Shown: in pieces, positions 1,704-60,407 of the stretch
Layout of the letters: every line of letters starts with the position of its first letter
How positions within the stretch are numbered: position 1 is the first letter of the stretch
From: an uncultured virus (IMG/VR IMGVR_UViG_3300001687_000011)
Taxonomy: Duplodnaviria > Heunggongvirae > Uroviricota > Caudoviricetes
Virus record (IMG/VR): IMGVR_UViG_3300001687_000011
Length of the DNA stretch: 64,000 bases
Direction: 5' to 3' (one strand)
Position numbers and translations under genes: made by a program
The notes under the pieces: generated by a model
Told to the model about the DNA's origin: nothing
Database searches by the model: none
The model's input: the letters and a program-made list of their open reading frames with translations, nothing else

Positions 1704-1731
1704 ATATCGGCATATTAGGGAAAAAACTTCA
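1704..1731 (-). promoter_or_regulatory. Repeated phage promoter motif, copy 1
   Basis: Minus strand TGAAG-TTTTTTCCCTAATAT-GCCGATAT, followed by an RBS-like GGGAGG and the 1351..1677 gene. Confidence 0.8.
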
Positions 1732-5020: not shown

Positions 5021-5048
5021 ATATCGGCAATAAGCAGAAATTTCTTCG
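5021..5048 (-). promoter_or_regulatory. Repeated phage promoter motif, copy 2
   Basis: CGAAG-AAATTTCTGCTTATT-GCCGATAT then AATAATTAAGGAGG. Confidence 0.8.
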
Positions 5049-10076: not shown

Positions 10077-10104
10077 ATATCGGCAATTACTACAAAAATC
10101 TTCG
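10077..10104 (-). promoter_or_regulatory. Repeated phage promoter motif, copy 3
   Basis: CGAAG-ATTTTTGTAGTAATT-GCCGATAT then AAATAATAAGGGGG; lies immediately after a terminator. Confidence 0.8.
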
Positions 10105-15775: not shown

Positions 15776-15803
15776 ATATCGGCATATCATTTAAAAAACT
15801 TCA
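15776..15803 (-). promoter_or_regulatory. Repeated phage promoter motif, copy 4
   Basis: TGAAG-TTTTTTAAATGATAT-GCCGATAT then AATAAATAGAGGGGG. Confidence 0.8.
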
Positions 15804-18366: not shown

Positions 18367-18873
18367 CTATTTCCCTGTATGACCAAATCCACCTTCTCCT
18401 CTTTTGGTCTCAGGAAGTTTTGTTACAGTTTCAAATTTAGCCTTTAGAGTAGGACTTACTACAGCTTGAGCTATCCTATCCCCAGGCTCTACAATATAAG
18501 TTACATTTCCTAAATTAGCCATTATAACGAATATTTCTCCACGATAATCAGCATCTACTGTTCCTGGGGTATTAACAATTGTAATACCATGTTTATATGC
18601 TAAACCTGATCGTGGTCTTATTTGTAATTCATATCCAGGTTCAAGAGCAATTTTTATGCCAGTGGGAATAGCTTTATAAATAATATTCCCCAGGTCACGT
18701 ACACAGTATATCATTTCTGGATATTCTATAGCTGCTCTCAGATCAAACCCAGAAGCTTCTTTAGACATGTATTCCAATCCACCCTTTTTATGTGGATAAT
18801 GATCTAAATAAACAACCTTAATTATGGGTTGTCTAAACTCTACCCTATTTATACCCTCTAAATTAAGATTCAC
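18367..18873 (-). CDS. dut: Trimeric dUTPase
   Basis: ASGFDLRA, QIRPRSGLA, GTVDADYRGEI, GDRIAQ, RGEGGFGHTG. Confidence 0.95.
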   Translation of the reverse strand: MNLNLEGINRVEFRQPIIKVVYLDHYPHKKGGLEYMSKEASGFDLRAAIEYPEMIYCVRDLGNIIYKAIPTGIKIALEPGYELQIRPRSGLAYKHGITIVNTPGTVDADYRGEIFVIMANLGNVTYIVEPGDRIAQAVVSPTLKAKFETVTKLPETKRGEGGFGHTGK

Positions 18874-19966: not shown

Positions 19967-19994
19967 ATATCGGTCATTACCCAAAAAATCTTCA
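19967..19994 (-). promoter_or_regulatory. Repeated phage promoter motif, copy 5
   Basis: TGAAG-ATTTTTTGGGTAATG-ACCGATAT then AATAAATAGAGGG; the TGA is the stop codon of the upstream gene. Confidence 0.8.
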
Positions 19995-20982: not shown

Positions 20983-22159
20983 ATCTTTTTTTCCTCCTCA
21001 ACTCTTTTATTTTTTCTTTCTTAGTCTTCTCAGACCACTTATAGACTTTTACTGGTTCCAGGATATCAGGTTTACGTTTTAACACTGATATCCACCAATT
21101 AGCTCTTACTTCTTTGAAAGATCCATAATCCTCTTCCACACCATCTTTTTTCTGTACAGTGCTCATAGTAGTATATGTATCATCAACCATTTTTACTACA
21201 TGATAACTTTTCATTTTAGTACCCCATAATAAATATAAGTAATAATGGAATAAATGATATAGAAACCAATGTTATTATACATATCTTTAGAAGAAAATTT
21301 AATCTTCTCAATTTTTTCTTAGAAGTCTTTATTCTTAAGTCCAAACTATCAGAATCACTAAATATTCTTTTTCTATGCTCCTCAAATATACCAGTAAGCT
21401 TATCAGGCAATTTTTGTAAACCCTTTTGCACCTCATGAAGACCAAGAAAGTAGCGTTCCATTGATTCTAATTCTTCAATATCCATGTTTTTTGGTCTCCT
21501 CCAAATATTTTCTTTGTTCTTCTTTTGCTTCCTCTATTTGAGGTTTTATCCATTCATAGCAGTTAGAACAGAGGTGATGATAATCACTATGCAGACAACA
21601 ATACAAAGGATCTCCTGTTTTAATAGGTTTACCACATCGATCACACTTCTGTAGATACTCATCACATGTAGGACAATATCTAATAGTGAATTCTTTCAAT
21701 ATTGTCTCAATTACTCTTACTTCATGTAGATACATTAAATCACCATATCATCTGGATATTTGGTTGTAAGTGGTCTATAGTCTTCATCAGCTTTTTTTCC
21801 ACATTTTATACATTCCATTTCAGGAATAACATTTTTGTGGAAATTTGTATCATCATATCCACAACCCTTTTCCTCATGACCACAATGTTCACATTCATAA
21901 ATAGCTATAAAATCACGTCTATGTTGTGATACTATTTTTTTAATCTTCATTTTATTCACTCTTCTTTAAGCTCACACATTCTTCGTAAATGTCTGAGCAC
22001 TTGGGCCATTTCACTATCCTCATTAGGATCATCTATAGGCCAAATCTCAAGTAAATCTGCTATTGTACCAGGTTTCTTAACCTTTCTACTCCATCCATCT
22101 TTGTTGTACTCATATTCTTTAATTTCTATTGGTAAATCTTCAAATTTCATATCGGCTCC

Positions 22160-24420: not shown

Positions 24421-24448
24421 ATATCGGCACATTGATAAAATTTCTTCA
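24421..24448 (-). promoter_or_regulatory. Repeated phage promoter motif, copy 6
   Basis: TGAAG-AAATTTTATCAATGT-GCCGATAT then AGTAAATAAGGGGG. Confidence 0.8.
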
Positions 24449-35716: not shown

Positions 35717-36451
35717 TTAATCACCCTTTCCAAATATGTTATATAAAAGTTTATCTATATCATTCCAGTTATAAACAACAGATTCAATATGGGAATACAC
35801 TTTAGTTTCTTCCATGATCTTAACCCACTCCTGTCCAATTTTATAATTCTTCATATCCCCATACAGGATAGGTTGTATCCCCCCACGAGATTCTTCAAAT
35901 AAATATTTACAGGTCTTTAACTTGTCATCAACAAAGAAGTAAACCCCACATTTATTGAGATAGAATAACTTACGGTCAGTAGAGTTGTAAGTTCTGAAAA
36001 CATGTATCTCTGAGATCTTTGTTAGATGATCATGTAAATATTCCTCCAAAGGTTTCTGCTCAGTCTTGTCTCTATGTGTAATAATAATCAAAGGTCTATT
36101 TTCAAAATGCTTATTTAAAATATCGATAGCCCCCTCCATAAATTTTATCCTATGGAGGTTTTTTGCTTCTACCAGTAAATCTACTACATGGAAAGATTTA
36201 TCTGCTGGTAATCCGTAAATCTTATCCAGATGGTTATTTATATCCTCATTCTTTAAAACAGGAGTCACACCATAAAGTTCAGCATATAACTCTTTCCAGG
36301 CATCAACAAAATTAATAATAACTTCATCCAAATCAAATGCTACAACTGATTGTGGATATTTAGATTTTTCAAACTTTATACCAGCCTTTTTTAGGTACTC
36401 AGTAAGTTCCCTGGCTGACATCTCTCCAATCAACTTGATAAATTTGTTCAT
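35717..36451 (-). CDS. HAD-family 5'(3')-deoxyribonucleotidase-like protein
   Basis: FDLDEV, IITHR, K...FVDD. Confidence 0.7.
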   Translation of the reverse strand: MNKFIKLIGEMSARELTEYLKKAGIKFEKSKYPQSVVAFDLDEVIINFVDAWKELYAELYGVTPVLKNEDINNHLDKIYGLPADKSFHVVDLLVEAKNLHRIKFMEGAIDILNKHFENRPLIIITHRDKTEQKPLEEYLHDHLTKISEIHVFRTYNSTDRKLFYLNKCGVYFFVDDKLKTCKYLFEESRGGIQPILYGDMKNYKIGQEWVKIMEETKVYSHIESVVYNWNDIDKLLYNIFGKGD

Positions 36452-37085
36452 TAAACTTCTCCAAGACCTGAGTATTTTCAGTAATTTGGTCATTCATTTC
36501 ATCTAATTGTATTTTTGCATTTTCGACCATAGAAGGAGCAAACTGTTTCGGGTCATTAACTATTTCTTCATAACCTTCTTTCATATATGTCAAGATATTT
36601 ATCATCCTTGTTGCTACTATTTCACTTCTAACTTGCATCAGGAGTAATCCAAGTTTATTACTACCTTTCCACCAGCAACGAGCACATTTACAGTCCCCCC
36701 AATAATTATCATGCCAACTATTCCCCTCTTCCAGGTAAGCGTCTTCAGTATCGAGTAAATCAGATTGTAACTTCATATCTGAGAATTTTATTCGTAAAAA
36801 GGTCAACATAATAAAATCTTTAACCAGGAGACCGTTAGATAATTTAGACTCCCAATCTGGACGTAATGTGATCTTTCGACCATCTTCACCCCTTCTACTC
36901 CCACGTTTCTTGGCAATATTAGGAGTGGGAGCAGTTCTTATCCATTCATGATCTTCTTCATTCACTGTTTTGAAAGCCTGGTAAGCATGTTCAACAGTGT
37001 TGTAAGTCTTACCATGAAACTCAAAAGGAGACCAGGCAAAATTACTTAAGAATTCAAAAAATCCATCAAAATATTGGATCATCAT
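36399..37085 (-). CDS. NADAR-family (YbiA-like) ADP-ribosyl/N-glycoside hydrolase
   Basis: FLSNF, TVEHAYQAFK, RPDWE, KF, EGNSWHDNYWG, NKLGLLLMQVR. Confidence 0.85.
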   Translation of the reverse strand: MMIQYFDGFFEFLSNFAWSPFEFHGKTYNTVEHAYQAFKTVNEEDHEWIRTAPTPNIAKKRGSRRGEDGRKITLRPDWESKLSNGLLVKDFIMLTFLRIKFSDMKLQSDLLDTEDAYLEEGNSWHDNYWGDCKCARCWWKGSNKLGLLLMQVRSEIVATRMINILTYMKEGYEEIVNDPKQFAPSMVENAKIQLDEMNDQITENTQVLEKFNEQIYQVDWRDVSQGTY

Positions 37086-37104: not shown

Positions 37105-37860
37105 TTACCCTGCTACCATAAAAGGTTCTATCAATGAACTAATATCTTTATATTTTGGTAATATATTATCATGTCTTGTTGGATTACTTTGACCTTTTTC
37201 AATCATATAAAACATACCATTTCTAAACTTCTCTGGTAAGTCTGTAGTCCAATTTTTATTAATCTTGTGTAACATTTCGTGGATATCTGCTTGACCTTGA
37301 CCATGCAACTGTTTATCAGAAAAAAACATCCTGGCAAATTTTGAAATACTATTCCTTCGATTATCTAAGGCCCGTTCTAAGAAATAGTTTGATACCTCAT
37401 CTTTTGGCATATTGAAAGCTAAACAAGAAAAAGTAGCTGGTCTTCTATCCATCAGTACCTCAAGGTCGTGTGGAAAAGGATAACTATAAATATTGTGTAC
37501 AGTTTGAATGAATTCGTTAAAATATCCAGTCATTTTTGAAGCAGGATTAGCAACAAGTTTGTGATACTTATTATCAAACCAGGGAGTTGTATTTATTGTA
37601 TCAAAATCTGTCAATAAAAAAGATACCTCATCTGATTGAGTATAAGCAACCTTAAACCCTTGCATATTTTGTATCGTTTGACAAATGGCATAATCAAAAG
37701 CATTTGATATAATCTCACTAAAAGGTGTACATCCCTGGGTATAGGAGTGGAAAGTTTCACCATCTACTCGGATGATAACAGGCATTCTTTTTATGAGATT
37801 AAACCTGAAACAACTTTCATATCCCCTCATACGTTTAGACAATTTACCAGTGTTTCCCAT
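37105..37860 (-). CDS. tRNA(His) guanylyltransferase Thg1-like 3'-5' polymerase
   Basis: IRVDGETFHSYT, YTQSDEVS, RNSIS; likely start MGNTG at 37860. Confidence 0.88.
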   Translation of the reverse strand: MGNTGKLSKRMRGYESCFRFNLIKRMPVIIRVDGETFHSYTQGCTPFSEIISNAFDYAICQTIQNMQGFKVAYTQSDEVSFLLTDFDTINTTPWFDNKYHKLVANPASKMTGYFNEFIQTVHNIYSYPFPHDLEVLMDRRPATFSCLAFNMPKDEVSNYFLERALDNRRNSISKFARMFFSDKQLHGQGQADIHEMLHKINKNWTTDLPEKFRNGMFYMIEKGQSNPTRHDNILPKYKDISSLIEPFMVAG

Positions 37861-37861
37861 G

Positions 37862-38212
37862 TTATGTCCCCTGTTGAGCAAACTGCTCTTTATAAATTTC
37901 AGCAGTACGAGTGAGTATATGCTTATCACACTTACTATATACCTGCTGCCAGTATTTGGGCATGGCCCTCTTAACAACATTTAACTGCTTCTTAGATAAC
38001 CGTTTTCCAGACTTAAACTGCTTTGCAATACTGGTAAGTATTTTAGCATCGAAACTATTGAACCCTATTCCATTAAGATCAATAGTTTCTTTATAACTTT
38101 GTTCTGTAGAAGTCTGGTTTCCATAGACTGTCATTAAGGCCCGTAAAGCCCATTTATTATCAGTTTCTACCTTGAATTTAAGAAAATCTATTACTTCCTT
38201 TTCAGTAATCAT
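37862..38212 (-). CDS. Hypothetical protein with a motif familiar from phage proteins
   Basis: RAL...QTxxEQ...NGIGFxxFDA...LSKKQ...KY motif; function unknown. Confidence 0.5.
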   Translation of the reverse strand: MITEKEVIDFLKFKVETDNKWALRALMTVYGNQTSTEQSYKETIDLNGIGFNSFDAKILTSIAKQFKSGKRLSKKQLNVVKRAMPKYWQQVYSKCDKHILTRTAEIYKEQFAQQGT

Positions 38213-38461: not shown

Positions 38462-38489
38462 CTATCGGCAATATGTCAAAAATTCTTCG
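38462..38489 (-). promoter_or_regulatory. Repeated phage promoter motif, copy 7
   Basis: CGAAG-AATTTTTGACATATT-GCCGATAG then AATAAATAAGGGGG. Confidence 0.8.
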
Positions 38490-38490
38490 A

Positions 38491-39099
38491 TTAATACTTT
38501 TCATCAGGATCATTGGGATCAATAAAATCATATACTCTGATCTTTAAATCACTATCCTTAACCAAGTATTCAGCAGAGATATCATAATAACTCATCTTTG
38601 TAACTACTATCTCTTTTACCCCATGATTTATAATCTCTACTAAACATGGACTACAAGGTATCCCACATGACATGTACATAGTTGTTCCATAGGTAGAAAT
38701 CCCTAATCTCCCAGCATTATTCAATGCATTACGTTCAGCATGTCCAGCAATACACCATTGTAAACCTTCCCCAGATTTAAAGCCCATCAACTGTCTGGGG
38801 CATTTATTAAATGAGATATGATTATAACCATAAACAGTTTGAGCATATCTCTGTAATTGCAATACATGAGTAACTTTAAAATCCTCCTCTTTCAGTATCC
38901 CACGTTTCTTATATTCTTTCCTTAGGTTATCATCATATTGGTGTCTTACATCACAGTGATGAACCCCACGGGGAGGCCCATTATATCCAGTGCTAACTAC
39001 ACACCCATCTTTGACAAGTACAGCCCCAATCTTTCTGGAAAGACATTTACTATTGCTTGCAACTGATATACAAATATCATATATTGATTTATCAGTCAT
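38491..39099 (-). CDS. dCMP deaminase
   Basis: SKCLSRKIGAV, TGYNG, HAERNA, PCSPC; likely start MTDKS overlapping the upstream stop. Confidence 0.9.
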   Translation of the reverse strand: MTDKSIYDICISVASNSKCLSRKIGAVLVKDGCVVSTGYNGPPRGVHHCDVRHQYDDNLRKEYKKRGILKEEDFKVTHVLQLQRYAQTVYGYNHISFNKCPRQLMGFKSGEGLQWCIAGHAERNALNNAGRLGISTYGTTMYMSCGIPCSPCLVEIINHGVKEIVVTKMSYYDISAEYLVKDSDLKIRVYDFIDPNDPDEKY

Positions 39100-39643
39100 C
39101 TTCAGAACTCTCCAACATCCATTCATCAAATACACACGTAAGAACATGAATGTTAATAATTTTATTATTGACATTTTCAAACTTAACTATATGATCAGAA
39201 GGTGTCAATCCAATTATTTTAATTACACAGTCAGGAATTCCTTTTTGAGCATCTTCGTTATTTTTGTATAGAGTAAATATCATATTTGGTTCTTCATCTT
39301 TCAATTCCCGTATAACTTCAAATACCTTTTTATCTTTAACCTGGTATAGCTCAAAAGTTAAAAAGTTATTTATTAAATCAAACTCTACACTTTTAGTGAT
39401 TATATCAAAAAAATTTCCTTCTTTTAGATCTACTTCAACACTCCATAAATTGTTACTCATATTTATAACCTCACTTTACCCAATGTTTAAAATCCTCTGC
39501 TGTAAGCTGTTTAGCTATCTCTCTCTCTTCTTCACTAAGCCTTTTGATATGATAACCTGGGCCACCCTTATTTCCTTTATAGTGAAGAAGAGTTGACCAA
39601 ATCAATTTCTCAACTAACTCTTTTTTTTTAGTTTCAAAACTTT

Positions 39644-40947: not shown

Positions 40948-40975
40948 TTATCGACACTTTTCTAAAAAATCTTCA
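40948..40975 (-). promoter_or_regulatory. Repeated phage promoter motif, copy 8
   Basis: TGAAG-ATTTTTTAGAAAAGT-GTCGATAA then GTAAGTAAGGAGAG. Confidence 0.75.
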
Positions 40976-42195: not shown

Positions 42196-43131
42196 ATCTT
42201 TACCTCCCTAATATATTTTTATTGAAAGAAAATATACTTATTGGTAATACTTCCTTAGTAGGAAATTTTTTATAAATAAGCTTTGCTAAGAAGCTTGAGT
42301 AATATCCATTAGTCCCTGATACTATCAGTATATTCTTGAATGGTTTAAAAGAATTTATATTTATATCAGTCTCCTCCAATGTAATATACTCCAATACTGA
42401 ATTTAATACATTTAGTGGTACTTTTTTATAGGTTCTTAACATTGTATCGAGAACAAGTAAATCATTATTCAGATATTTGTTTCTTATACTTGTTAAGTTC
42501 CACAATAAACTATTTATATTCACTAAATTAGGTATTCCCATAGAAAAATCTGAAACAATAGCATCGAACGGAAAATCATTAGCTATTGTTTCAACAACTT
42601 TATCAACACACGTATGAAATTGTTTAAAAACTTCTTTTGAAACATCTTCATTCCTTATAATTCTTTCAAGAACTCGGATGCTGAATAACTGTGATACTGT
42701 TGGGTATATTTTGTAGATACTATGATACTTTAGAGTGGGGTTTGAGTACAACCTAAATAATTCACCATAGTAATTATACCCAAGATTACAATTATAACTG
42801 AGCATCCGTTTTGTACTGAGTGTCTTAGATGGTTTCCTTTCATAGAATGAAGCAGGTCTTTTATTATCTACCAGGTTTATTATTGACCTGAAAGGGTTCT
42901 TTAGATTAACAATAGAAAACCCATTTACATGTACCTCTCCACTTTCTGTTATTTCAATATGTGTCATTTAATATTACTCCTATAGGTTCATAGTCCTTAT
43001 AAATGTAATGTGGATGATTCACCATAAGAAAAAATGCACCATCACAGAAACGTCTTACTATTTCTATATTTGCCTTATTAAAATTTATTTTTTCTTTCAT
43101 CTCTTTAGCAGTCTTAAAAAACAATTCTGTC

Positions 43132-46100
43132 TCAAGCCAATTTTTTAGCATAAGGCAATAATCCTCCTATCATTATCCTCTCAGAAGGTAGATCCAGGCT
43201 CAGTTGTGGTTCCAAGGCTAATACTCTTAAACTATCTTTCACCCAACCAAATGAAGCTTTCTTAAACCAAGATGGATAGTTTTTACCATTCTTTATACTA
43301 CCAAATAAACAGATTTTTTCTATCTCATCATCAGAAATAAATCTTCTCAAGTTGTAACGTCCATGTGTATCGATTACTATCTCTGTCATAGCTCTGAATA
43401 TCAGTTCCAAATGACAAGGGTAAACAGTAATACCTTCTTCACCATAAATATCCAGTAATCTACTCACAAAAATCCTTCCAGTGAATTCTAAATCAGTTTC
43501 CTTATATAACTTATTAAGATCTGCTTCTCCATATGTCAAAAAATCTCCTTCTTCTGCATAATCACCTGTACCATAATAAATAGGGGAGTCAGTAACTTCC
43601 CCTTGTTTATATCCATCTATGAATATCTCTATAGTAGAAACTTCTGCATCATCTTTCTTGCGAAGAAATACTTTTCCTGACCTTTGGGCCACAACCGTAG
43701 CAGGTATGTGACATTTTCTTTCATTCCTGTCTGGTACTTCAAAATAGTAGATAAGAAAGGCAATAGTATTATTGACATCCTCATTGCCCAGATCTTGTTC
43801 GTATAGAGCTACAACAGATCCTTCTTCTATTTCCTGACCTTCCTTAACCAGGATCTTACCATGTTTAGTCATTACCATATAATGTCTGTTTTCCGATTCT
43901 CCAAACACGGTAATACTGATAATATTTTCATCTATATCTTTCAGCTTTACTCTCCCACCTATTGAACTTATTATTGCCAACGGGGAAGATTTAATACTTG
44001 CTACCCCTGAATGGTGGAATTGTCTCAAAGATAACTGAGTTGTAGGTTCAATCAAAGATTGAGAGGCAATTACTCCCACAGGTATCTTATTCTTAGTAAG
44101 TTTCCTGGTTGATGGGTCTGTACCAAAACATCTCCTACAAACTCCACCTTTGGATTTCATTTCACAAGTTATAGGTGATCTTACAGTAACAAGCCTTTCT
44201 GGATTTTCAATCTTGTTTATCAATCTACCATCGACCGTATACTTTCCCAGAGCATATTTTTCTTTTATTCTAATACCCCTGATAGTTTTACAATCTTCAC
44301 CATCCACATATAAGTCTCTGGCTATAGTTACTAAACGTCTCTCTAAGTATCCACTCTTAGGGGTAAGCAACTTTTTATCAGCTAAACTTTTACGTGCCCC
44401 TGCAATAGTATCAAAGAATTCATATAGAGTTAGACCATCCATAAGACTATGAGTTACGGGATTAGGTAAAATTTCCCCTTTTGCATTAGCTATCAATCCT
44501 TTAGCTACTGTCAACTGAGAAACTTGACTAAAACTTGCCCTGGCACCAGTCTTTAACATAATAATAACTGGATTGGTACTCCCCAACTCTTCAACAACTT
44601 CTTTTCCAAGCTCTTGTATTGTAGTATACCACTTTCTTAGCTTATTCTCATTAGTCTTTGAGGTATCCTTTTCACAAAACTCTTCAACCTCTTTAAATCT
44701 TTTGTCCCTATTCTTAGGGGGTCTAATATCGTCCATAGACAAAGATAATCCACTTAAAGTAGCATAATGGAAAGTCAGATCTTTGAATTCATCCAACATC
44801 TTTTCCATCTCTTCTAAAGAATGATTATCATAATAATCACTCATAATTTTACTTACTGCTTTCTTAGTAAGGGGTTCCGTAATTTTGGTATCCAAGAGTT
44901 CCCCCATAAGAATACGTCCAGCACAAGTAAGATTATTATTGTATGGGATATTTTCTCCCCCATACCAAATAGCTTCATTTATCTGAAGGTGCCCAGTTTG
45001 TAATAAGTAATCCAGTTCTGTTCTATCAGCAATAATCCTACATGACCTTCTGATATCAGATCTTAATAATTCCCTATAATCCTCTTCACGAATATTAGTC
45101 ATTATGTAGGCCCCTATTATCATCTCATGTGATGGTTTTATAATAGGTTGACTATCCCTTGATCCTAACAGATTATACCTGGGCAACATTAAATTTTTTG
45201 CTTCATTGAAAGCCCTTCTTGATAGAGGAACATGTACTGCCATCTGATCACCATCAAAATCAGCATTAAAAGGAGCACATACACAAGGATGTAACCCTAT
45301 AGCATGATAGTCTGAGAGCTTTACCCAGAAAGCTTGTAACCCATATCTGTGTAATGTGGGATGTCTATTTAACATAACAATCTTTTTGCCATCTATGATA
45401 TCTTCCATAAGATCCCAAACCATCGGGTCTTTATCTCTGTATAATTTTTTAGCTTCCTTATAAGCATATTGTACCTTTTCTCTTTTAAGTTTCTTCTTCA
45501 ACTCATAGATTATGAAAGGTTTAAACAGTTCATACACCATTTTACGTGGTATCCTGGCCTCATTTAATTTAAGACTTGGATCTGACACAATCATAGTCCT
45601 ACCAGAATAATCAATCCTTTTACCCAGTAGGTTTAGTCTGAACCTTCCATCTTTTCCAGAGATATTATCTACCAAGGAACTTACATCCCTTCCCTTTGAA
45701 TCTTTTGTACCCTGGACAAATAATTCATTCACTGCCTTCTGTAACAATCTTTGCTCATTTAAAAATATGATCCTGGGAGTTAAAGCTTCATGCTGAAGGG
45801 TTTCAATCCTATTACACCTTCGTATGATTCTCCCATACAATTGATTGTGACAGTGAATAACCCAAAAATCATTAGTCTTCATAACTGGCCTGTGACCAGC
45901 AGGACTTACTAAGATCCTTATCAAGACATAGTTACGTGGATCTATTTCATTCTCTAATAACTTCTTTATATTAGGATTTATTTCAGAAGTTTCTTCAATA
46001 TTTAATTTCAATATTGTTTCTGGAAGAGTATAAGCTGTGTTCCTAAATGCCATAAATTGATTATCCATTAGAGGAACATACTTAAATGATCCTTTCCTTC

Positions 46101-46533
46101 CATCAGCAAGTATATATAAACCTTTATCATCCTCCTCAAAAAGTAGACCACTGCTGTATTCATAGAGTAATTTAATATTAGAGAACTTTAAGAATGGAAA
46201 CATTTTTAATATCCCATTCTCTATTAATGGCCTCATAATAGGTATAGGAAGTTCAATATGACCTAACCTTTGGCATCTTACATAAGAGTTTGTTACTTCA
46301 ACCTGACACTTTTCACACACTTTACCAGCATGTCTCTTTGAAACCAAGGATCGACATTTGCACTCATAATCATTTATGGGGCCAAATATACGTTCACATA
46401 GTAATCCATCCTGTTCAGGTCTTGGTGGATTGAATTTGAAATTTAATGTCCTCTGATTCAAGATCCTACCACTTGATAGTTCTAACATCCTCTCTGGGGA
46501 CATGAGCTTAATCTTTATCTTCATATTTTCCAT
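43132..46533 (-). CDS. rpoC: DNA-directed RNA polymerase beta' subunit (unsplit)
   Basis: GLLCERIFGP..ECKC zinc region, GHIEL, GRFRLNLLGKRIDYSGR, NRHPTLHR, catalytic NADFDGDQMAVH, bridge helix GARK...SGYLERRL, trigger loop EPTTQLSLRQFH. Confidence 0.95.
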   Translation of the reverse strand: MENMKIKIKLMSPERMLELSSGRILNQRTLNFKFNPPRPEQDGLLCERIFGPINDYECKCRSLVSKRHAGKVCEKCQVEVTNSYVRCQRLGHIELPIPIMRPLIENGILKMFPFLKFSNIKLLYEYSSGLLFEEDDKGLYILADGRKGSFKYVPLMDNQFMAFRNTAYTLPETILKLNIEETSEINPNIKKLLENEIDPRNYVLIRILVSPAGHRPVMKTNDFWVIHCHNQLYGRIIRRCNRIETLQHEALTPRIIFLNEQRLLQKAVNELFVQGTKDSKGRDVSSLVDNISGKDGRFRLNLLGKRIDYSGRTMIVSDPSLKLNEARIPRKMVYELFKPFIIYELKKKLKREKVQYAYKEAKKLYRDKDPMVWDLMEDIIDGKKIVMLNRHPTLHRYGLQAFWVKLSDYHAIGLHPCVCAPFNADFDGDQMAVHVPLSRRAFNEAKNLMLPRYNLLGSRDSQPIIKPSHEMIIGAYIMTNIREEDYRELLRSDIRRSCRIIADRTELDYLLQTGHLQINEAIWYGGENIPYNNNLTCAGRILMGELLDTKITEPLTKKAVSKIMSDYYDNHSLEEMEKMLDEFKDLTFHYATLSGLSLSMDDIRPPKNRDKRFKEVEEFCEKDTSKTNENKLRKWYTTIQELGKEVVEELGSTNPVIIMLKTGARASFSQVSQLTVAKGLIANAKGEILPNPVTHSLMDGLTLYEFFDTIAGARKSLADKKLLTPKSGYLERRLVTIARDLYVDGEDCKTIRGIRIKEKYALGKYTVDGRLINKIENPERLVTVRSPITCEMKSKGGVCRRCFGTDPSTRKLTKNKIPVGVIASQSLIEPTTQLSLRQFHHSGVASIKSSPLAIISSIGGRVKLKDIDENIISITVFGESENRHYMVMTKHGKILVKEGQEIEEGSVVALYEQDLGNEDVNNTIAFLIYYFEVPDRNERKCHIPATVVAQRSGKVFLRKKDDAEVSTIEIFIDGYKQGEVTDSPIYYGTGDYAEEGDFLTYGEADLNKLYKETDLEFTGRIFVSRLLDIYGEEGITVYPCHLELIFRAMTEIVIDTHGRYNLRRFISDDEIEKICLFGSIKNGKNYPSWFKKASFGWVKDSLRVLALEPQLSLDLPSERIMIGGLLPYAKKLA

Positions 46534-46542
46534 AGTAACACC

Positions 46543-47136
46543 TTATATGAGTTGTCTTATTATTTCAAATAATGTTTTCCATTCTTTATAGAAAATATTT
46601 CTTGACATTCCTAAGAAATTTAATAGTTCTTCTTTAGAGTTAATGTCATAGATATATAAATCTTCAAGATATTCTCCTACTACCTTAAAGAAAGTCTTAT
46701 TGTACTGTAAAATTTCATCAATCCTATTTATCTTAATATTAAAAGCAAACATATATTTATGACATGGCTTTCTTAAGTGATGAAATATTTCCTCTATCAT
46801 AATAACTGTAGATACTTCACTCTCAAGATCTTTAGATGGATCTATAATTGGTATTAAATTAGGATTAAATGGGATAATGTTGTGTATTTTCCTTGTATCC
46901 CTAAGTTCATCCAAAGCTTTCTTTGTACTTATTGACCCTTTACCATGAAATACTTTTTGATATGCTATTTCTTCTTGTAGTAGATCTTGAGCATTAAAGG
47001 CGTTATCATACTCCTTTAAATCATAAGTACCTTCATTGGTAGATTCTATCATTTCCTTTATATGCTTGGTCTTTTTGATTTTCTTTTTTATAGTATACCC
47101 CTTACATTGTGTTGAATGAACACCATAGTTTCTCAT
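46543..47136 (-). CDS. Divergent sigma-70-family (group 3/4-like) factor candidate
   Basis: AQDLLQE (region 2.2-like), KALDELR (2.4-like), C-terminal HTH SKEELLNFLGMSRNIFYKEWKTLFEIIRQ (4.2-like); ends 9 nt before rpoC. Confidence 0.5.
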   Translation of the reverse strand: MRNYGVHSTQCKGYTIKKKIKKTKHIKEMIESTNEGTYDLKEYDNAFNAQDLLQEEIAYQKVFHGKGSISTKKALDELRDTRKIHNIIPFNPNLIPIIDPSKDLESEVSTVIMIEEIFHHLRKPCHKYMFAFNIKINRIDEILQYNKTFFKVVGEYLEDLYIYDINSKEELLNFLGMSRNIFYKEWKTLFEIIRQLI

Positions 47137-48119
47137 CGAGTCTCCTACTCGTGGGAATATTCTTCTCCGAACGTTTGGAAATAGTAGTCTTGGAATTCCA
47201 GGAATATTCCTGGGTAGATATCCACCAGCTTAAGATATGATTCATATAATAAAAGCCAATAATCATCATCTCCAACTTCATCAGCTTCTCTATTTTTATC
47301 AAAGTTGCCTAATTTGTGGAGAATATCATATGCCTCCTGAAGTATTGGATAGTTATTATATTCAGTAGCGACATCTAAGAATATAAGAAAGGATTCTATA
47401 TCCTTTAATAGACCTATTTCATCACAGTAGAATAACCCACCTCTGTTGAAGTGTTTCAAAAAATTAGAAAATTTTAATGTGTAATGATAAATAAATTCAT
47501 AGCTCTGTTCCGTTATATCTACCAACAGCCTACCTACATGAATACCCATTCTTTCTACACCTCTTCCACTTCAGACCTAAGAATTTCCTCTGTAAAAACA
47601 AAATGACATGGATTACTGTTTATAGCAAGACCTCTCCCAGACCACTCCAATATTTCTTCATCAGTAAGATCTCGTGTAGTTTCTTTGGGAAATTTTACAT
47701 CTATAAAACCAAATCCACATACCCAGTTTCCAATGTAATTTTCTTCATCTTGACTATGAATAACACAAAGATCAGGTTTATCCCTGCTAATATCCCCAAG
47801 TTTGTGTATAGCCTTAGTAGCTATTTTATATCTCTTAAGACCTGATCCAGTAGGTATATATATCTTTACTGGATTATCTTCATCGAGTTCAATACCTTCA
47901 TTTTTTAGATATTGAGCATAATCTGGATGGATAGTTCCGAGTTCATACACTGAACCAGAATGAGTTGTTACTCGTCTACCTTCTGATTTTACTATTGTTG
48001 ATGTAGTAACTTCTATATCCTTACCCAATCTTGGGTGGTTATCAACAATACCATGAAGTTTCTTACTTTGTAGTTCAGGTGCTTGATATGGACTACCACA
48101 TGAAACAACAGACCACTTT

Positions 48120-48485
48120 TCAAGTTTCATCTTTAACCTCCTCCCACTTATCGTGTTTTCTAACCTCTACTTTTATATATCGGTCATTCATCAATTTTTC
48201 TACTGTCTCTTCTATTGTTATTTTATCATGAATGACCTGTGAAACCTTTACTTTCAACCAACTCTGAAATTTTTCTGAATTGACTAATCGTCTAAAAGCT
48301 ATCTTTTTATTTTGAGATTGGGATCGTTCTTCTCTACTTTCTCCCACGGCCCCCGATTCTCTGTGGACTATTCGGACACCAGAACTTGTCTTATTGACCT
48401 TTTGGCCTCCATGTCCACCACATCTAAAAAACTGAATATCAAAGTCCTTCTTCGTGAGAGAGAATACCAATTCCTTCTTAGTCAT
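48120..48485 (-). CDS. Codon-independent class I release-factor domain protein (ArfB/PrfH-like peptidyl-tRNA hydrolase)
   Basis: RCGGHGGQKVNKTSSGVRIVH...ERSQSQNKKIAFRRL; 121 aa, no codon-recognition domains. Confidence 0.85.
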   Translation of the reverse strand: MTKKELVFSLTKKDFDIQFFRCGGHGGQKVNKTSSGVRIVHRESGAVGESREERSQSQNKKIAFRRLVNSEKFQSWLKVKVSQVIHDKITIEETVEKLMNDRYIKVEVRKHDKWEEVKDET

Positions 48486-50121: not shown

Positions 50122-50622
50122 TTATTCTCCATAATCATTCACCTTTTTAAACAGTTTGAACAATATTTTACAACTCTCACCAAACACATCAAAATTTTCA
50201 GATTGTCTATTACCAGCTATATTAACAGTAATGTAATCCTTTCCCAACAAATTAAACCATTGACTAATATGATCAAGATGTTCTTCTGGACAATGCATAA
50301 GATTTATATCTTGAAATTGTCTTCTATAATACCTTATGGCCTTTAGTGTACAGATCTCCCCAGCAGTGTCAAATTTATAGGCTAATCTTATAGTACAATC
50401 AGAATTTTTTGCATTAAGATAAGTCCTTGGAGGATACCCTGGCTCTTGGCATTCTTCCAGACCATAGGTATCCCTTAGAAGTGTAGGATTAGGCCCCTCT
50501 GATGTCATGTAGTCTTTAGGTGCCCATCCACCAGTTGATATATGAAGTGCCTTAGCAACAAAAAGACCTGCCTGGTCACTACCTGTTTGACCACCACTTA
50601 TTACTTTAATTATCTTTACCAC
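50122..50622 (-). CDS. SLOG-superfamily 'molybdenum carrier'-like protein
   Basis: ISGGQTGSDQAGL, GGWAP, YPPRTYLN, NIAGNR. Confidence 0.75.
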   Translation of the reverse strand: MVKIIKVISGGQTGSDQAGLFVAKALHISTGGWAPKDYMTSEGPNPTLLRDTYGLEECQEPGYPPRTYLNAKNSDCTIRLAYKFDTAGEICTLKAIRYYRRQFQDINLMHCPEEHLDHISQWFNLLGKDYITVNIAGNRQSENFDVFGESCKILFKLFKKVNDYGE

Positions 50623-50833
50623 TTAATCTCCTAACCGAGTAAGGCTACTGTATTTAGTTTTTGCTGGCAATAATACTTATTCCCCCATCAGGGGGTATAA
50701 CTTCAATCTCATTTTCTGTCAAACAAGGAACTGGTCTACCATATCTATTGATATGGCTAACAGGTCTCACTTCATTCATTCCATTTCTAATGACACGAAT
50801 TAACATATTTATCATGTTTACCTCCCCTAAAGG

Positions 50834-50859
50834 AAAAAAGGAAGGTTTACCCTTCCTTT
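50834..50859 (-). terminator. Terminator-like hairpin ~25 nt downstream of promoter copy 9
   Basis: AAAGGAAGG-GTAAA-CCTTCCTTTTTT. Confidence 0.6.
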
Positions 50860-50885
50860 CATAGAAGAATTTGCCTATACTATCT

Positions 50886-50913
50886 ATATCGGTATTTTAT
50901 TAAAAAATCTTCA
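50886..50913 (-). promoter_or_regulatory. Repeated phage promoter motif, copy 9
   Basis: TGAAG-ATTTTTTAATAAAAT-ACCGATAT. Confidence 0.8.
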
Positions 50914-51626: not shown

Positions 51627-52196
51627 TCATTTTTTTCCTGCATTTACTTTTCCTCCAATGTCACAAATTATGAATCTGTCATCTAATATATCCGATAAAA
51701 TCCCACTAACCTCTTTCCAGTTTAGCTCTCCATTGGAACACCCAGGTTTAGGAATAGCTACAGATTTCCACCCTTCTTTGTCAGCTAACTCTATTAGTTC
51801 ACTTGCTGATTGTTTTATTAGGTTAATATCTGATTTGCAAGCCCACCCTGGACAAAAATTTGTTATACTCATCTTTGATCTCATATAACTAACTACTTTT
51901 TGATTAAGATCAGAAGCATTCATAATATATATATGGTCTGGTTTTGTTGGAAAACTTACTATATAGGTTCCTTCTATATTGATAATCTTTTGAACATGAT
52001 TTCCATTATCTTTAATAAGTCTACCTAAAGCAAATTCCAATCCAGGCCATTTATCCCTGGCTTGTTTGGCTACACCTTTACCCATAACATTAGACCCATC
52101 CTTCTTAATACAACCATTTGTAGTAATACAGATAGCATCTACTTTACCTACCAAGGAAAAGATGTTTCCATTAAATATACGATTATATACTTCCAT
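51627..52196 (-). CDS. Macrodomain (ADP-ribose binding/hydrolase; DarG/TARG1-like)
   Basis: GNIF, ITTNG, VMGKGVAKQA, SFPTK, AIPKPGCSNGELNW. Confidence 0.82.
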   Translation of the reverse strand: MEVYNRIFNGNIFSLVGKVDAICITTNGCIKKDGSNVMGKGVAKQARDKWPGLEFALGRLIKDNGNHVQKIINIEGTYIVSFPTKPDHIYIMNASDLNQKVVSYMRSKMSITNFCPGWACKSDINLIKQSASELIELADKEGWKSVAIPKPGCSNGELNWKEVSGILSDILDDRFIICDIGGKVNAGKK

Positions 52197-52621: not shown

Positions 52622-52649
52622 TTATCGGCAATATTGTAAAATGTCTTCA
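52622..52649 (-). promoter_or_regulatory. Repeated phage promoter motif, copy 10
   Basis: TGAAG-ACATTTTACAATATT-GCCGATAA then TATAAGTATAGGGAG. Confidence 0.8.
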
Positions 52650-52936: not shown

Positions 52937-55900
52937 TTAAAGATTAAAAGTTATATTTCCGTATAGCATAGTTTGTTCAGTACCATAATATTTTGAAAAG
53001 GCCCTCTTAGGTAAAAATAAATCCTCAAGGGATTGATAGTTGGTCTTCTCTTCAGCTATATTAAAATCTATATGATAAAAATTACTTACCCGATCAACTA
53101 TGTTATAAAATGTGTTCTTATTACATGCAAACTCATAATGAATAGCATTACCTACCCTGTTCTCTTTTTCCAGTTTCATCATTTGGTTTCTGTGTATTCC
53201 CAATTCCCAATCTATTTTGACAGGAACTCCAAACTCTTTCTGTAGGTAATCTTCAGCTACATATTTCATTAATGGGATAAAAGAAAACAAATGAGGAATA
53301 TATATCTCAAAATCAGCAGAATCATGAGTAAACAATACTGGTACAGCTTTGATATTGAGATTTACACACTGCTCATATAAATGCCAGATACCATATCCAG
53401 CCACATTACTTGCTGAGGATTGGATAGGCCAGTTCTGGCACCTTCGTTTTATCTCAGCTTTTTTCATCTGAAGAGGTAAATATAAAGGATCTCCAAACAG
53501 AGTATTTACATATCCCCTCTCTGCTTCTTTATGACGTTCTGCTATCCACTCTGCTACTTTTGGAAACCCAGAGAAAAACCCTTCATATATTTCTCTTGCC
53601 TGTTGTATATCTCCCTGACAAAAATCAACTCCAAATTCATAGATCCCCTTACCATAAAGAATAGCGAAACTTGCATTCTTAGCAAATCTTCTCTGTTTCT
53701 TGGATATCTGCTCTTCTGGGATCTTAAAAATCCTGGATGCTACATATCTGTGAATATCTTTTCCTTGCCTGAAGGCATCGAGTAAATTTTCATCACCTGA
53801 TAATGCTGCCATGAATCGAATTTCATTCTGGGAGTAATCATAATGAAGACTACAACAATTAATATCTCTGGGGACATACATCTCATTAAGTGCTGATCCT
53901 GGGGGGACAGTATGTGCCCCAGACTGCCAACGTTTTGTTGCAGCAGTACAGGCAAATAATGATGGAGTAAATATATATCTTTCTTTTTCTCTAAGTTTAT
54001 TGTCTACAGGAAGAGTGTTATAAGATTCATGCCTCATAAGAGGTTTAGTAAAATCTTTATAATCACATACATTGACATTTATTCTGCCAATCTTACCTTC
54101 AATATACACAGAATTAGATTTAATGACCTTTTTGAACCTCTTTAGATAATAGAGAATATTAAACTCATCAGACCAAGTATCTCTATTATCAATATCTAAA
54201 CCACCCCCAGAAATTTCCTTACCACATAGAGGGCATCTTTCCTCTTTTTCATCAGAAACCCATTTATGACATTCTCTACAACAATATCTATATTTCCCTC
54301 CATATTTTATTTGAGCTTGATACTGGAATTCAAGAACCTCTGCTGCAAATCTCTTAAAGTATAAATCCCAAGTTTTGTCTAAATTTTGAACAGCCTTGAT
54401 TATTTCTTTAGCATCTTTCTGTTTTTGTTTAACATCACCAGACAGATCCTTTAAAAGCATATTAGCATAGGTCATGACATTTTCTATTGTCTCATTCACA
54501 TCATTTTTGTTTATAATTGTAGCAAGATCATCTGAAGATGTAGAAGGTAAAGATAATAAAAACTTTTCAAAATAATAAAGAGTTACCAGAGCAGTTGTCC
54601 AATCAGTTCGATAAATATTCCAAAAGGGTAGTTGACTTTCATATTTATTTGAAAGAGGATTGAATATCTTCTTTAGCTCTTCTAACCTTTCATCAGGAGA
54701 CATAGAAGCAAGTCCTATAATTGTTCCTGCTGACATCTTCTCTTCATCAAGTAAATCTAATCCTTGGATTAAATTATATAAACAATTACATGCTTCATCT
54801 ATATAATAAGTTCTCAATTCTTTAGCTTTTTCATCATTCCAATTAGTACCGTAAGATTCCATTACCCCAGCTAATCTGGCCTGGGCTATATAGTTTGGAT
54901 AATACTGACCAAACATGGGCCATAATTTATTTCTGAGTAATAAAGTATAGTAGCTATCATAACAGCAGTATTCAGCTACTTTCTTCAAAGGTACTGCTGC
55001 CATTCCAGACTTCATAGTAAGACCAGTTTTAATTTCTTCATCACTAATCATAGTCTTCAGCTTCTTTAGAATATCATAGATATCCTTGACAGCTTTTTTA
55101 GCATTTAAAAGCCTAACCTCCATGATCTCTTCCATCTTTTTAGTCTCTTTATTTTTTCTCCTTCGGGGTGCTTCCTCATCCAAGTATTCCATAAAGGAGT
55201 TAAAATCTTCCACCAATAAACTATATTCCCCCTCATACTTCTCTTCTAAGGTAGGCATTAACTTGAATATTGAATTGAAAGAATCTCTAACCTGAGCTAC
55301 AAAATCTTCCCAAAAATCTGCATCAAGGTATTTCCTGGCATTTTCTTTTAGCTTACCTGGGCTGCAATCTATATTACAAAGCACCTGACTATCATTAAAA
55401 TCTATTCTTGTCCCAAATTTAGACCAGGTTAATCCCATTTCATATTTACAGTTATAAGTCCAGGGTTGTTTCCTTTTGAAAAAGTTCAGAAGAATATCTG
55501 CTAAATTTTTAGGAAGAACATAATCTTCAGAGGGCCAATAAAAATAAATAGCTTTTAAAGGTTCTATCCCCACTAAAGAGAATCCTAATATTTTGTTATT
55601 TGGAGACCATACTTCAAGATCTGTAGCTTCATAGTCAAATCCAAGATCATTATATTTTTCAAACTCTGGTAAAGCTGTTTCCAACTCTTCAATATTTATT
55701 ATCTCAAACCAGTCAGGGTCTTTAATAATAGGAGTATTTATTATAGTATCACTTGTATCAAATCTTTGTATAAGCTGCTTTATTCGTATTATCCATGATC
55801 TATACATACTACTCCCCAGACCACCATTTCTTGCAATATAGCTTGGATGGAAAGCTGCTCCATATCTAACATCAGCAATTTGATAAGGAGACATATGAGA

Positions 55901-56383
55901 GAGTTTAGTAATCTTATAATCTTTTTTGTAACTATCTGGTAGCATTGAGTAAGCTGCTGTGCCACCTAAGAGAATGACAGTATTAGCATTTAACTCATTT
56001 AAGAATTGTTGTAAATGTATTTTACAGAATTTACACTCATCCTCTTCAGGAGTTCGTGTTCTTCCATCAGCTTTGACGGGCCAACAGCAATTTATATTTG
56101 CTATTGCATAATCGGTAAGACCTAATTCATTTATTGCTGCCCGTAAAATACTTCCAGACTTAGCCTCTGGATAAAAAGGTCTTTTATATTTAGCCTCTTG
56201 TTCCCCAGGTGCTTCCCCTACAAAAATTACTCTAACTTTTTCAGGACTACCAAAAATTTCAAAAGGGGCAAACTTCGTATCCATCTGTCTGCCCCTCATT
56301 GGACAACCTTTATCACAAATATTCAATTTTTCACGTAAATCTACAAAGGTAATATTATCCATACCTAACCAAACACCTTCCAC
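52937..56383 (-). CDS. polA: Family A DNA polymerase with N-terminal family-4 uracil-DNA glycosylase domain and 3'-5' exonuclease (start may be ATG 56362)
   Basis: UDG: GEAPG..E...RPF, Fe-S Cys, FHPSY; exonuclease: FDYEAT, YNCKYE, YCCYD; polymerase: DYSQNEIR, RRFAKNASFAILYG, NWPIQS, THDS. Confidence 0.92.
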   Translation of the reverse strand: MEGVWLGMDNITFVDLREKLNICDKGCPMRGRQMDTKFAPFEIFGSPEKVRVIFVGEAPGEQEAKYKRPFYPEAKSGSILRAAINELGLTDYAIANINCCWPVKADGRTRTPEEDECKFCKIHLQQFLNELNANTVILLGGTAAYSMLPDSYKKDYKITKLSHMSPYQIADVRYGAAFHPSYIARNGGLGSSMYRSWIIRIKQLIQRFDTSDTIINTPIIKDPDWFEIINIEELETALPEFEKYNDLGFDYEATDLEVWSPNNKILGFSLVGIEPLKAIYFYWPSEDYVLPKNLADILLNFFKRKQPWTYNCKYEMGLTWSKFGTRIDFNDSQVLCNIDCSPGKLKENARKYLDADFWEDFVAQVRDSFNSIFKLMPTLEEKYEGEYSLLVEDFNSFMEYLDEEAPRRRKNKETKKMEEIMEVRLLNAKKAVKDIYDILKKLKTMISDEEIKTGLTMKSGMAAVPLKKVAEYCCYDSYYTLLLRNKLWPMFGQYYPNYIAQARLAGVMESYGTNWNDEKAKELRTYYIDEACNCLYNLIQGLDLLDEEKMSAGTIIGLASMSPDERLEELKKIFNPLSNKYESQLPFWNIYRTDWTTALVTLYYFEKFLLSLPSTSSDDLATIINKNDVNETIENVMTYANMLLKDLSGDVKQKQKDAKEIIKAVQNLDKTWDLYFKRFAAEVLEFQYQAQIKYGGKYRYCCRECHKWVSDEKEERCPLCGKEISGGGLDIDNRDTWSDEFNILYYLKRFKKVIKSNSVYIEGKIGRINVNVCDYKDFTKPLMRHESYNTLPVDNKLREKERYIFTPSLFACTAATKRWQSGAHTVPPGSALNEMYVPRDINCCSLHYDYSQNEIRFMAALSGDENLLDAFRQGKDIHRYVASRIFKIPEEQISKKQRRFAKNASFAILYGKGIYEFGVDFCQGDIQQAREIYEGFFSGFPKVAEWIAERHKEAERGYVNTLFGDPLYLPLQMKKAEIKRRCQNWPIQSSASNVAGYGIWHLYEQCVNLNIKAVPVLFTHDSADFEIYIPHLFSFIPLMKYVAEDYLQKEFGVPVKIDWELGIHRNQMMKLEKENRVGNAIHYEFACNKNTFYNIVDRVSNFYHIDFNIAEEKTNYQSLEDLFLPKRAFSKYYGTEQTMLYGNITFNL

Positions 56384-60379: not shown

Positions 60380-60407
60380 TTATCGTCACTTTATTAAAAA
60401 ATCTTCA
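60380..60407 (-). promoter_or_regulatory. Repeated phage promoter motif, copy 11
   Basis: TGAAG-ATTTTTTAATAAAGT-GACGATAA then TATAAGTAGGTGG. Confidence 0.72.

Follow-up and report, generated by a model that had tools for sequence, protein, structure and literature searches.

A sigma region 4-like protein encoded next to a lone RNA polymerase beta' subunit in an uncultured Caudoviricetes phage, and its possible role in a hybrid host/phage polymerase

We analysed 64,000 nucleotides (nt) of an uncultured Caudoviricetes virus (IMG/VR record IMGVR_UViG_3300001687_000011), a stretch called the window throughout, and found that a gene for a 197-amino-acid (aa) protein and the gene for a lone, unsplit RNA polymerase beta' subunit directly downstream of it form, as judged from gene order, a conserved two-gene module. 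This is concluded because a member of the 197-aa family sits immediately or closely upstream of every lone beta' examined, namely in the window, in TM30-type Rhizobium phages and in the Vibrio phages Va2, 1.031.O and 150E35-1, and we consider the two proteins to be probable functional partners. The best explanation of the module, to which we give slightly less than an even chance, is that a sigma region 4-like (sigma-4-like) factor and a lone beta' work as parts of a hybrid host/phage polymerase. The preliminary description of the window had put forward the coupling of the two genes as a unit, and the repetition of the pairing in the Rhizobium phages and in three Vibrio phages bears this out.

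Gene arrangement and the beta' subunit

The window is AT-rich (GC content ~33%), its minus strand carries essentially all genes, and in the map of open reading frames (ORFs) the 197-aa ORF, beta' and both flanking ORFs make up one tightly packed operon:

47145..47549, minus strand: 134-aa ORF, ending 8 nt before the sigma-4-like ORF, same operon (ORF call)
46543..47136, minus strand: sigma-4-like protein, 197 aa, stop codon TAA (ORF call, family members, AlphaFold2 fold match)
46534..46542, minus strand: 9-nt gap of the junction TAA-GGTGTTACT-ATG (sequence reading)
43132..46533, minus strand: unsplit RNA polymerase beta', 1133 aa (Pfam, PHROG, PDB chains, motif alignment)
42954..43151, minus strand: 65-aa ORF, overlapping the beta' 3' end by 20 nt, same operon (ORF call)

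The start of the 197-aa ORF is preceded by AGGAG, and a Shine-Dalgarno-like AAGGTG overlaps its stop codon ahead of the beta' start at the 9-nt junction, so that translational coupling of the two ORFs is likely. For the flanking ORFs, the 134-aa ORF gave no family match and the 65-aa ORF a weak match to phrog_3119 (E 0.006); neither is similar to its positional counterpart in TM30 (by BLAST for the 65-aa ORF).

The beta' protein matches the Pfam Rpb1 domains 1 to 5 in order and on one chain (PF04997, PF00623, PF04983, PF05000 and PF04998; E 1e-34 to 2e-9, all exceeding the Pfam cut-offs), the unannotated full-length phage family phrog_25354 (E 1.9e-149) and the solved bacterial beta' chains of the PDB, with many phyla about equal (E ~1e-135 to 1e-129). 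The aspartate triad NADFDGD lies at residues 423-429, the bridge helix reads TPKSGYLERR, a variant, and the trigger loop reads QLSLRQFH with R and H retained. When the window beta' is aligned with the Carin-5 protein, three sequences from bacteria and four from related phages, it proves to have kept not only these three motifs but also the zinc finger at its N-terminus, the GKR..YSGR segment and the second zinc site. The clamp helices, to which sigma region 2 binds, are close to canonical (NEQRLLQKAVNEL compared with NEKRMLQEAVDAL). The unsplit 1133-aa chain with an intact NADFDGD and the altered bridge-helix and trigger-loop residues, all named in the preliminary description, are thus present, as is the 9-nt distance between the two genes, whose coordinates are exact.

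The TPKSG bridge helix is common to the window, TM30 and P0007, a metagenomic protein 62% identical to the window beta', and we therefore read it as a clade signature and not as decay. The pairwise identity of the five lone beta' sequences aligned is ~30-37% except between the window and P0007 (62%). The Asp triad, the bridge helix, the trigger-loop R and H and the N-terminal zinc finger are conserved in 5/5 of them; the second zinc site is found in the window, P0007 and TM30 and is lacking in the two Vibrio phages. Retention of the motifs at such low identity we take as the signature of selection on catalysis. Alignments with bacterial-type beta' among phage-database records stop near residue 905-922 and leave the C-terminal 220 residues unaligned. 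The phage beta' is almost certainly genuine and intact, and apparently it is catalytically competent.

The nearest phage beta' proteins belong to ten TM30-type Rhizobium phage records (36.7% identity over 99%), followed by those of the Vibrio phages Va2 (31%), 150E35-1 and 1.031.O (30-31%); Carin-5 beta' is 24.9% identical. Megablast found the phage absent from the phage collection, and the best IMG/VR match (35%, locus L003, the one inspected individually out of 80 loci) was set aside as a bacterial rpoB-rpoC locus and not a phage. In a quick maximum-likelihood tree of 24 chosen sequences, where long-branch effects are possible, the window, P0007, TM30, Va2 and 1.031.O cluster (Shimodaira-Hasegawa-like approximate likelihood ratio test (SH-aLRT) 88), 18 other rows (17 library hits and the bacterial copy of L003) stand apart (SH-aLRT 100) and Carin-5 sits on a very long branch. 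The clade of the window beta' looks like an old phage lineage rather than a recent host capture. In 150E35-1 (L097 4001-8803), beta' is annotated in two pieces, 4001-5341 and 6347-8803, between which lie a 250-aa ORF with a weak T5orf172-domain match (E 0.012) and a tiny ORF; the interruption looks like a mobile insertion (an intron or homing-endonuclease cassette).

The 197-aa protein family and its pairing with beta'

The 197-aa ORF has no Pfam or PHROG match, a word-indexed search of 5.8 billion proteins matched it to itself only, and phmmer against 6,749 ORFs of 82 loci gave 0 matches at E<=10. One relative, P0002, was found in an exhaustive HMMER scan of 1.84 billion representatives (E 2e-7) and acts as a bridge, with pairwise E 3e-11 to the window ORF and E 2e-16, over the full length, to TM30 gp336. 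P0003 (from TM39), P0004 and P0005, the last a fragment, came from a profile search, and by local blastp the family is joined by ORFs of the Vibrio phages (211 aa in 1.031.O and 150E35-1, 213 aa in Va2). The similarity of these ORFs to the TM39 gene product and P0004 has E values of 1e-7 to 3e-10; to the window ORF it is weaker, with E 0.005-0.03 across 180 aa. Scans of viral contigs and of metagenome contigs for loci of this family found none.

All members share an N-terminal Y..A..D..EE..(Y/W)...VFHG(K/P) pattern with a helix ending in IR, a variable linker and a conserved C-terminal domain; the window member reads Y..A..D..EE..YQ.VFHGK and has the shortest linker of the family. The partner gene lies 9 nt upstream of beta' in the window and is likewise its direct neighbour on that side in 1.031.O and 150E35-1; in TM30 (gp336) it stands two genes and in Va2 three genes upstream, so the window differs from TM30 and Va2 in that its partner gene abuts beta'. 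A 186-aa ORF just upstream of the Va2 beta' was examined as a homologue and rejected for lack of similarity, the true homologue being the 213-aa ORF two genes further.

Like the window, the TM30/Y65/TM39-type Rhizobium phages (RHph; Kleczkowskaviridae, Cuauhnahuacvirus), Va2, 1.031.O and 150E35-1 carry an unsplit beta' (1127-1263 aa), a TPKSG-type or otherwise altered bridge helix, an upstream homologue of the 197-aa gene and no beta that could be found, and TM30 also has a related fusion of uracil-DNA glycosylase (UDG) and PolA nearby. The window is set apart from them by identities of at most ~37%, another promoter motif, an AT-rich genome (33% GC) and a different host. In the Rhizobium and Vibrio lone-beta' records the partner is annotated merely as a hypothetical protein, and a literature search, with most subscription journals beyond its scope, found no paper on a phage-encoded lone RpoC/beta'.

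Predicted fold of the 197-aa protein

Sigma region 4 is the helix-turn-helix (HTH) that binds the -35 element and the flap. AlphaFold2 (AF2) models were computed for the window protein and for its relative P0002; in the window model the predicted local distance difference test score (pLDDT) is 86-94 over residues ~104-197 and <50 over residues 1-39 and 66-102. Structural search against representatives returned SigB (8x6g_H) as the top match (Z 7.0, root mean square deviation (rmsd) 1.9 A, 67 aa), then SigL (6dv9_F, Z 6.9) and, after it, SigD, SigK, BldN, sigma-H, CnrH, SigW, SigF and WhiG; sigma-28 scored Z 5.0-5.1 and LuxR-type HTHs lower (Z 4.2-4.8). The top 29 rows comprise 18 titled sigma factor, 5 initiation-complex chains, 1 unidentified chain (9n9q_C), 1 unrelated protein (prephenate dehydrogenase) and 4 further proteins (BldN, CnrH, WhiG and AlgU) that we take to be sigma factors. 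The P0002 model gave the same ranking with sigma region 4 first, and across both models the matches have Z 5-7 and rmsd 1.7-2.2 over 58-67 aa.

The alignment to region 4 takes in 67 of the ~97 residues of the C-terminal domain, which holds an insert of ~30 aa. Foldseek against the PDB gave nothing at E below 2.4, its weak rows including sigma factors; the top BFVD rows resemble family members by length; and the ESM Atlas gave no usable match for the whole protein and, for residues 100-197, sub-threshold leads (0.76-0.80), some of them to viral Sigma70_r4 or GerE clusters. In the models the C-terminal domain superposes on region 4 of SigB, SigL, SigK, SigW, sigma-E and sigma-28, and two domains joined by a variable linker also recall sigma factors of the extracytoplasmic function (ECF) class. 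We regard a sigma region 4-like fold of the C-terminal domain as quite likely, and the sigma character shown by the models applies to this domain.

Search for a beta subunit

Among the 130 minus-strand ORFs of the window of at least 60 aa, Pfam scans (6 ORFs at E<=1, 124 at E<=0.001) gave no Rpb2 or alpha family, and tblastn of the window with bacterial RpoB and with the beta of Carin-5 returned noise (best E 2.3); the lack of a beta or alpha gene in the window, already stated in the preliminary description, is upheld. The relatives searched were TM30, Va2, 150E35-1 and a partial-genome record of 1.031.O. At E<=10, neither PF00562 nor the Carin-5 phage beta found a beta in any of the four, and bacterial RpoB found none in TM30 or Va2; Sigma70_r2 was likewise without a match in TM30 and Va2. 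As positive controls, PF00623 finds beta' in TM30 and Va2 and PF00562 finds the beta of Carin-5 (E 7e-31).

Bipartite motifs in the window and in related phages

The pattern GAAG-N15-RNCGATA has 11 matches in the window against 0.11 expected, a number that 0/100 shuffles reach, and the 11 promoters of the YGAAG-N15 class noted earlier were thereby recovered. All 11 sites are intergenic and on the minus (coding) strand:

60381..60406, minus strand: promoter, GACGATA variant
52623..52648, minus strand: promoter, GCCGATA
50887..50912, minus strand: promoter, ACCGATA variant, the nearest upstream, 3.7 kb before the sigma-4-like gene
40949..40974, minus strand: promoter, GTCGATA variant, the first downstream of the beta' operon
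38463..38488, minus strand: promoter, YGAAG-N15-RNCGATA class
24422..24447, minus strand: promoter, YGAAG-N15-RNCGATA class
19968..19993, minus strand: promoter, ACCGATA variant
15777..15802, minus strand: promoter, YGAAG-N15-RNCGATA class
10078..10103, minus strand: promoter, YGAAG-N15-RNCGATA class
5022..5047, minus strand: promoter, YGAAG-N15-RNCGATA class
1705..1730, minus strand: promoter, YGAAG-N15-RNCGATA class
(all from the motif scan)

The proximal element is exactly GCCGATA in 7/11 sites and differs by one change in 4/11, is followed by A or T and then, in most, by A, and starts 25-35 nt before the next start codon in 9/11 sites (64 and 168 nt in the others). An excerpt of PMC7286023 gives the sigma-28 promoter consensus as TAAAGTTT-N11-GCCGATAA. 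By this consensus, the proximal GCCGATA(A/T) equals the sigma-28 -10 element GCCGATAA, and the distal YGAAGWTTT resembles the -35 element TAAAGTTT; as a sigma-28 -35 element the distal box fails, with an invariant G for the second A in 11/11 sites and a spacer of 12, not 11. Matches of sigma-70 type around the module are at chance (62 against 60.3).

GCCGATA is not enriched in TM30, Va2, 1.031.O, 150E35-1, Carin-5 or SP-15. Leads for other motifs in TM30 and Va2 came from a crude k-mer enrichment, which had missed the known motif of the window (probably through over-extended ORF starts), and were then tested directly. TM30 has 13 sites of GCGAA-N14-GCCTTCC (12 plus, 1 minus; 0.03 in simulation) with a spacer of always 14, and Va2 has 21 sites of ACCYY-N3-6-ACCTTGC (20 and 1 by strand; 0.2 in simulation); these patterns were set after the sites had been viewed, and the figures are descriptive and no test. 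Both motifs are strand-biased and lie upstream of genes, and their proximal elements are alike (RCCTTSCT) and unlike the GCCGATA of the window. The bipartite motifs are thus not shared among the window, TM30 and Va2, a divergence that would be expected were they read by a diverging phage-encoded factor.

Two further observations concern these elements. About 27 nt past the promoter at 50887-50912 lies a 10-bp GC-containing hairpin with a U-run (50836-50860), followed by a strong Shine-Dalgarno sequence and a small ORF (region 50815-50912), with the sigma-4-like/beta' operon farther downstream; the hairpin looks like a leader terminator or attenuator, or like the terminator of the previous gene placed after the next promoter. 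An eighth exact GCCGATA at 22150-22156 (minus strand; GCCGATATG) overlaps a start codon and lacks a GAAG box, and is for these reasons probably not a promoter.

A hybrid polymerase and the alternatives to it

Under the explanation that we prefer, the phage beta' would assemble with host alpha2-beta(-omega) into a hybrid core, and the sigma-4-like protein, acting as a minimal or diverged sigma-type specificity factor or as a surrogate of sigma region 4, would direct this enzyme to the strictly spaced bipartite phage promoters (YGAAG-N15-GCCGATA). That the phage beta' would work with host beta and alpha is proposed because the pairing is conserved, the catalytic centre is intact and the relatives gave no beta match; assembly of the hybrid core is drawn from the sequenced relatives, which encode no detected beta, and the lack of a beta match in these four genomes is what keeps the idea of a hybrid enzyme alive. 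To the hybrid core as such we assign a probability a little further below even. We infer that the small protein would bind beta', that the hybrid would assemble and that the module would supply the promoter-reading factor. A more specific form, in which the phage beta' displaces host beta' on host alpha2-beta and the co-inherited minimal sigma-like protein, bound to beta' by its short N-terminal segment, is a private specificity factor, is in our view rather unlikely; if true, it would give a pool of polymerase that is restricted to phage promoters and possibly immune to the phage's own measures against host beta'.

Several points weigh against this explanation. By the excerpted consensus, the window promoter is almost that of sigma-28, and host FliA/SigD could read it without a phage factor. 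In the window, a promoter of this very class precedes the module; in Va2, copies of its own motif occur ~100 nt before the sigma-4-like gene and shortly before the gene that follows; there is a bootstrapping problem, because the factor would be needed for its own promoter. Assembly of the hybrid would require free host beta, and the sequenced part covers ~64 kb of a genome that is incomplete and probably >120 kb, so that absence of beta from this DNA applies to the window. As a general rule, a role of beta' in transcribing T-hypermodified DNA was rejected: SP-15, which is hypermodified and has a DNA polymerase of the same type as the window, yields no homologue of the window beta' at E<=0.001, and the link between beta' and DNA modification is for that reason not general. 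The 197-aa family itself shows no sigma family in Pfam at E<=10 with five members (no Sigma70_r2/PF04542, r3 or r4), no sigma in profile searches of PDB sequences, and hhalign probabilities of 0.3% against E. coli FliA and 0.25% against the annotated sigma of Carin-5. The AF2 models were built from alignments of only 5 rows, their N-terminal halves have a pLDDT mostly <50 (up to 62), and Z ~7 is under the level that the structural tool deems safe for helical domains. Finally, at ~50 aa the conserved N-terminal segment falls short of the usual length of a sigma region 2, and no region 3 is evident.

Unlike members of the sigma-70 family, the 197-aa protein has no Sigma70_r2, r3 or r4 match, a ~50-aa N-terminal segment and a ~30-aa insert in region 4. 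The motifs AQDLLQE and KALDELR, which the preliminary description had likened to those of FliA and ECF factors, do have counterparts in E. coli FliA (DDLLQAG and AMLDELR), where D43 and A78 are ~36 residues apart against ~23 in the 197-aa ORF; the motifs occur in both proteins, yet no BLASTP, hhalign or profile comparison aligns the segments, and the D..EE..YQ.VFHGK...IR pattern recalls sigma regions 2.2-2.3 loosely and by eye only. The C-terminal region-4-type HTH of the same description stands as a predicted fold (two AF2 models, Z ~7) and finds no sequence profile match; likewise, of the sigma fold looked for in 46543..47136, region 4 was recovered by structural search, and neither hhalign against FliA nor Foldseek against the PDB was significant. 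That the 197-aa protein is a true sigma we consider doubtful.

The alternative that survives best, unlikely in our estimate, is that a sigma-28 of the host (FliA/SigD), if it has one, reads the promoters on host or hybrid core and that the 197-aa protein is no sigma but an accessory HTH protein: an activator, an appropriator in the style of MotA/AsiA that replaces -35 recognition, or a regulator that binds RNA polymerase. It draws on the identity of the proximal element with the excerpted -10 consensus and the resemblance of the distal one to TAAAGTTT, on the lack of a detectable region 2 or 3 in the 197-aa protein, on near-canonical beta' clamp helices that could bind a normal sigma, and on the location of the sigma-4-like gene itself downstream of that promoter class. 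A distinct -35 specificity is suggested, in contrast, by the G for A in 11/11 sites (GAAG, not AAAG) and by the spacer with one base more; and TM30 and Va2 carry the gene pair yet have quite different motifs that are not sigma-28-like.

Still less likely is a complete phage polymerase of sigma, beta' and beta, with beta in the unsequenced remainder and the 197-aa protein as its dedicated sigma. Such a set exists in the Cobetia phage Carin-5 (L096 3288-10113), where a 196-aa protein annotated 'RNA pol sigma factor' is encoded 11 nt upstream of an unsplit 1083-aa beta', with a 927-aa beta next in line (the annotation calls each of the two large genes 'subunit beta'; PF00562 matches its beta with E 4e-40). 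An excerpt of PMC7354516 lists beta, beta' and a sigma factor among the virion-associated proteins of YerA41. The phages of the Carin-5/YerA41/vB_Yru_GN1 type share with the window a ~196-aa gene just upstream of an unsplit beta' and a UDG-PolA of the same SP15-like group, and the unsequenced part of the genome leaves room for a beta. They differ in having beta, in a beta' only 25% identical to that of the window and in their sigma, which, as annotated in Carin-5, has no Pfam match and, by hhalign, no detectable similarity to the 197-aa family. Moreover, beta adjoins beta' in Carin-5, whereas the window holds nothing beta-like in 43 kb downstream or 17 kb upstream; the window beta' is nearer to the lone beta' phages (36.7% TM30, 31% Va2) than to Carin-5 (24.9%), with which the tree agrees; and the genomes of the four lone-beta' relatives are without a beta match.

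Least probable is a non-catalytic beta' that serves takeover or is a decoy, titrating a defence factor or the host's sigma or beta, and is regulated by the small protein: the want of a partner beta in the relatives and the unaligned C-terminal 220 residues would suit it, and it is opposed by the catalytic motifs and N-terminal zinc finger kept in 5/5 lone beta' at ~30-37% identity.

Relation to known systems and significance

The non-virion and virion polymerases of phiKZ/AR9 resemble the window in being phage homologues of the cellular beta'/beta subunits, and the window beta' has weak PHROG matches to phiKZ/AR9-type families (phrog_2987, 3015, 2986 and 2962). An excerpt of PMC7824862 describes those enzymes as having split beta and beta', with both double-psi beta-barrel subunits complete and no sigma, whereas the beta' of the window is a single chain and beta is missing from the window. 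The same excerpt reports minimal single-HTH sigma factors in group 2 jumbo phages, and small phage proteins of T4 (AsiA/MotA, gp33/gp55) that redirect the polymerase, providing an HTH or flap contact or taking the place of one. The T4 proteins differ from the present case in working on an all-host core, and no sequence or fold match between them and the 197-aa protein was seen.

If the preferred explanation holds, phages would have a third way of transcription, in which they supply just one catalytic subunit and form a host/phage chimera at the active centre. To our knowledge, all characterised phage strategies fall into two kinds: a core wholly of host origin is re-aimed (by sigma factors, AsiA/MotA or gp33/gp55), or the phage brings a polymerase that is complete. 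Complete phage polymerases are those of the T7 type, of N4, of phiKZ/AR9, YonO and those of crAss phages. The comparison also turns isolated GenBank annotations of a 'beta' subunit' into a defined two-gene module with a partner family, which comes with candidate promoters in three phages (window, TM30 and Va2). Database records name the host strains on which TM30 (Rhizobium) and Va2 (Vibrio alginolyticus) were isolated, which makes the question directly testable. Should a hidden beta or host sigma-28 be used instead, a new and very divergent sigma-4-like family tied to beta' would remain.

DNA polymerase and other genes of the window

The window also encodes a DNA polymerase and genes of nucleotide metabolism:

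52937-56383, minus strand: UDG-PolA fusion, 1148 aa, with UDG at residues 45-187 and DNA_pol_A at 830-1062 (Pfam)
38491-39180, minus strand: dCMP-deaminase-like gene
35717-36493, minus strand: NT5C-like nucleotidase
18367-18873, minus strand: dUTPase

The nearest relative of the UDG-PolA fusion is that of TM30 (37.8%), and the next include RP13, IME392, EP_H11, phiLo, LIS04, Carin-5, SP-15 and YerA41. An excerpt of PMC13697223 on the 'SP15-like DNAPs' (DNA polymerases) of T-hypermodified phages names those members, the IME phage being spelled EcoM_IME92. With an N-terminal UDG fused to PolA and the named members as nearest relatives, the window protein belongs with this group, into which many of the beta'-bearing phages also fall. 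The term 'RNA polymerase' is absent from PMC13697223 and from the Carin-5 paper. Because of this kinship and the dUTPase, dCMP-deaminase-like and NT5C-like genes, the DNA of the phage may be T-modified. A 259-aa ORF at 5661-6440 (minus strand) matches the N-terminal domain of GmrSD, which is of DUF262 type (E 1.4e-21). Bacterial restriction enzymes directed against modified DNA contain this domain, and it is odd in a phage with possibly modified DNA of its own.

The remaining features relate to RNA and to ADP-ribose:

51627-52196, minus strand: Macro domain
50122-50622, minus strand: circularly permuted YpsA SLOG protein
48120-48485, minus strand: RF-1-domain (ArfB-like) protein
37105-37980, minus strand: Thg1-like tRNA-His guanylyltransferase
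36399-37085, minus strand: NADAR
12873-12948, minus strand: tRNA-Phe (GAA), the sole Rfam/ARAGORN match in the window, overlapping the ends of ORFs 12637-12933 and 12939-13313
10567-11793, minus strand: RtcB ligase

Together, the RNA-repair and ADP-ribose-related genes suggest a set of counter-measures against host defences that target tRNA or translation.

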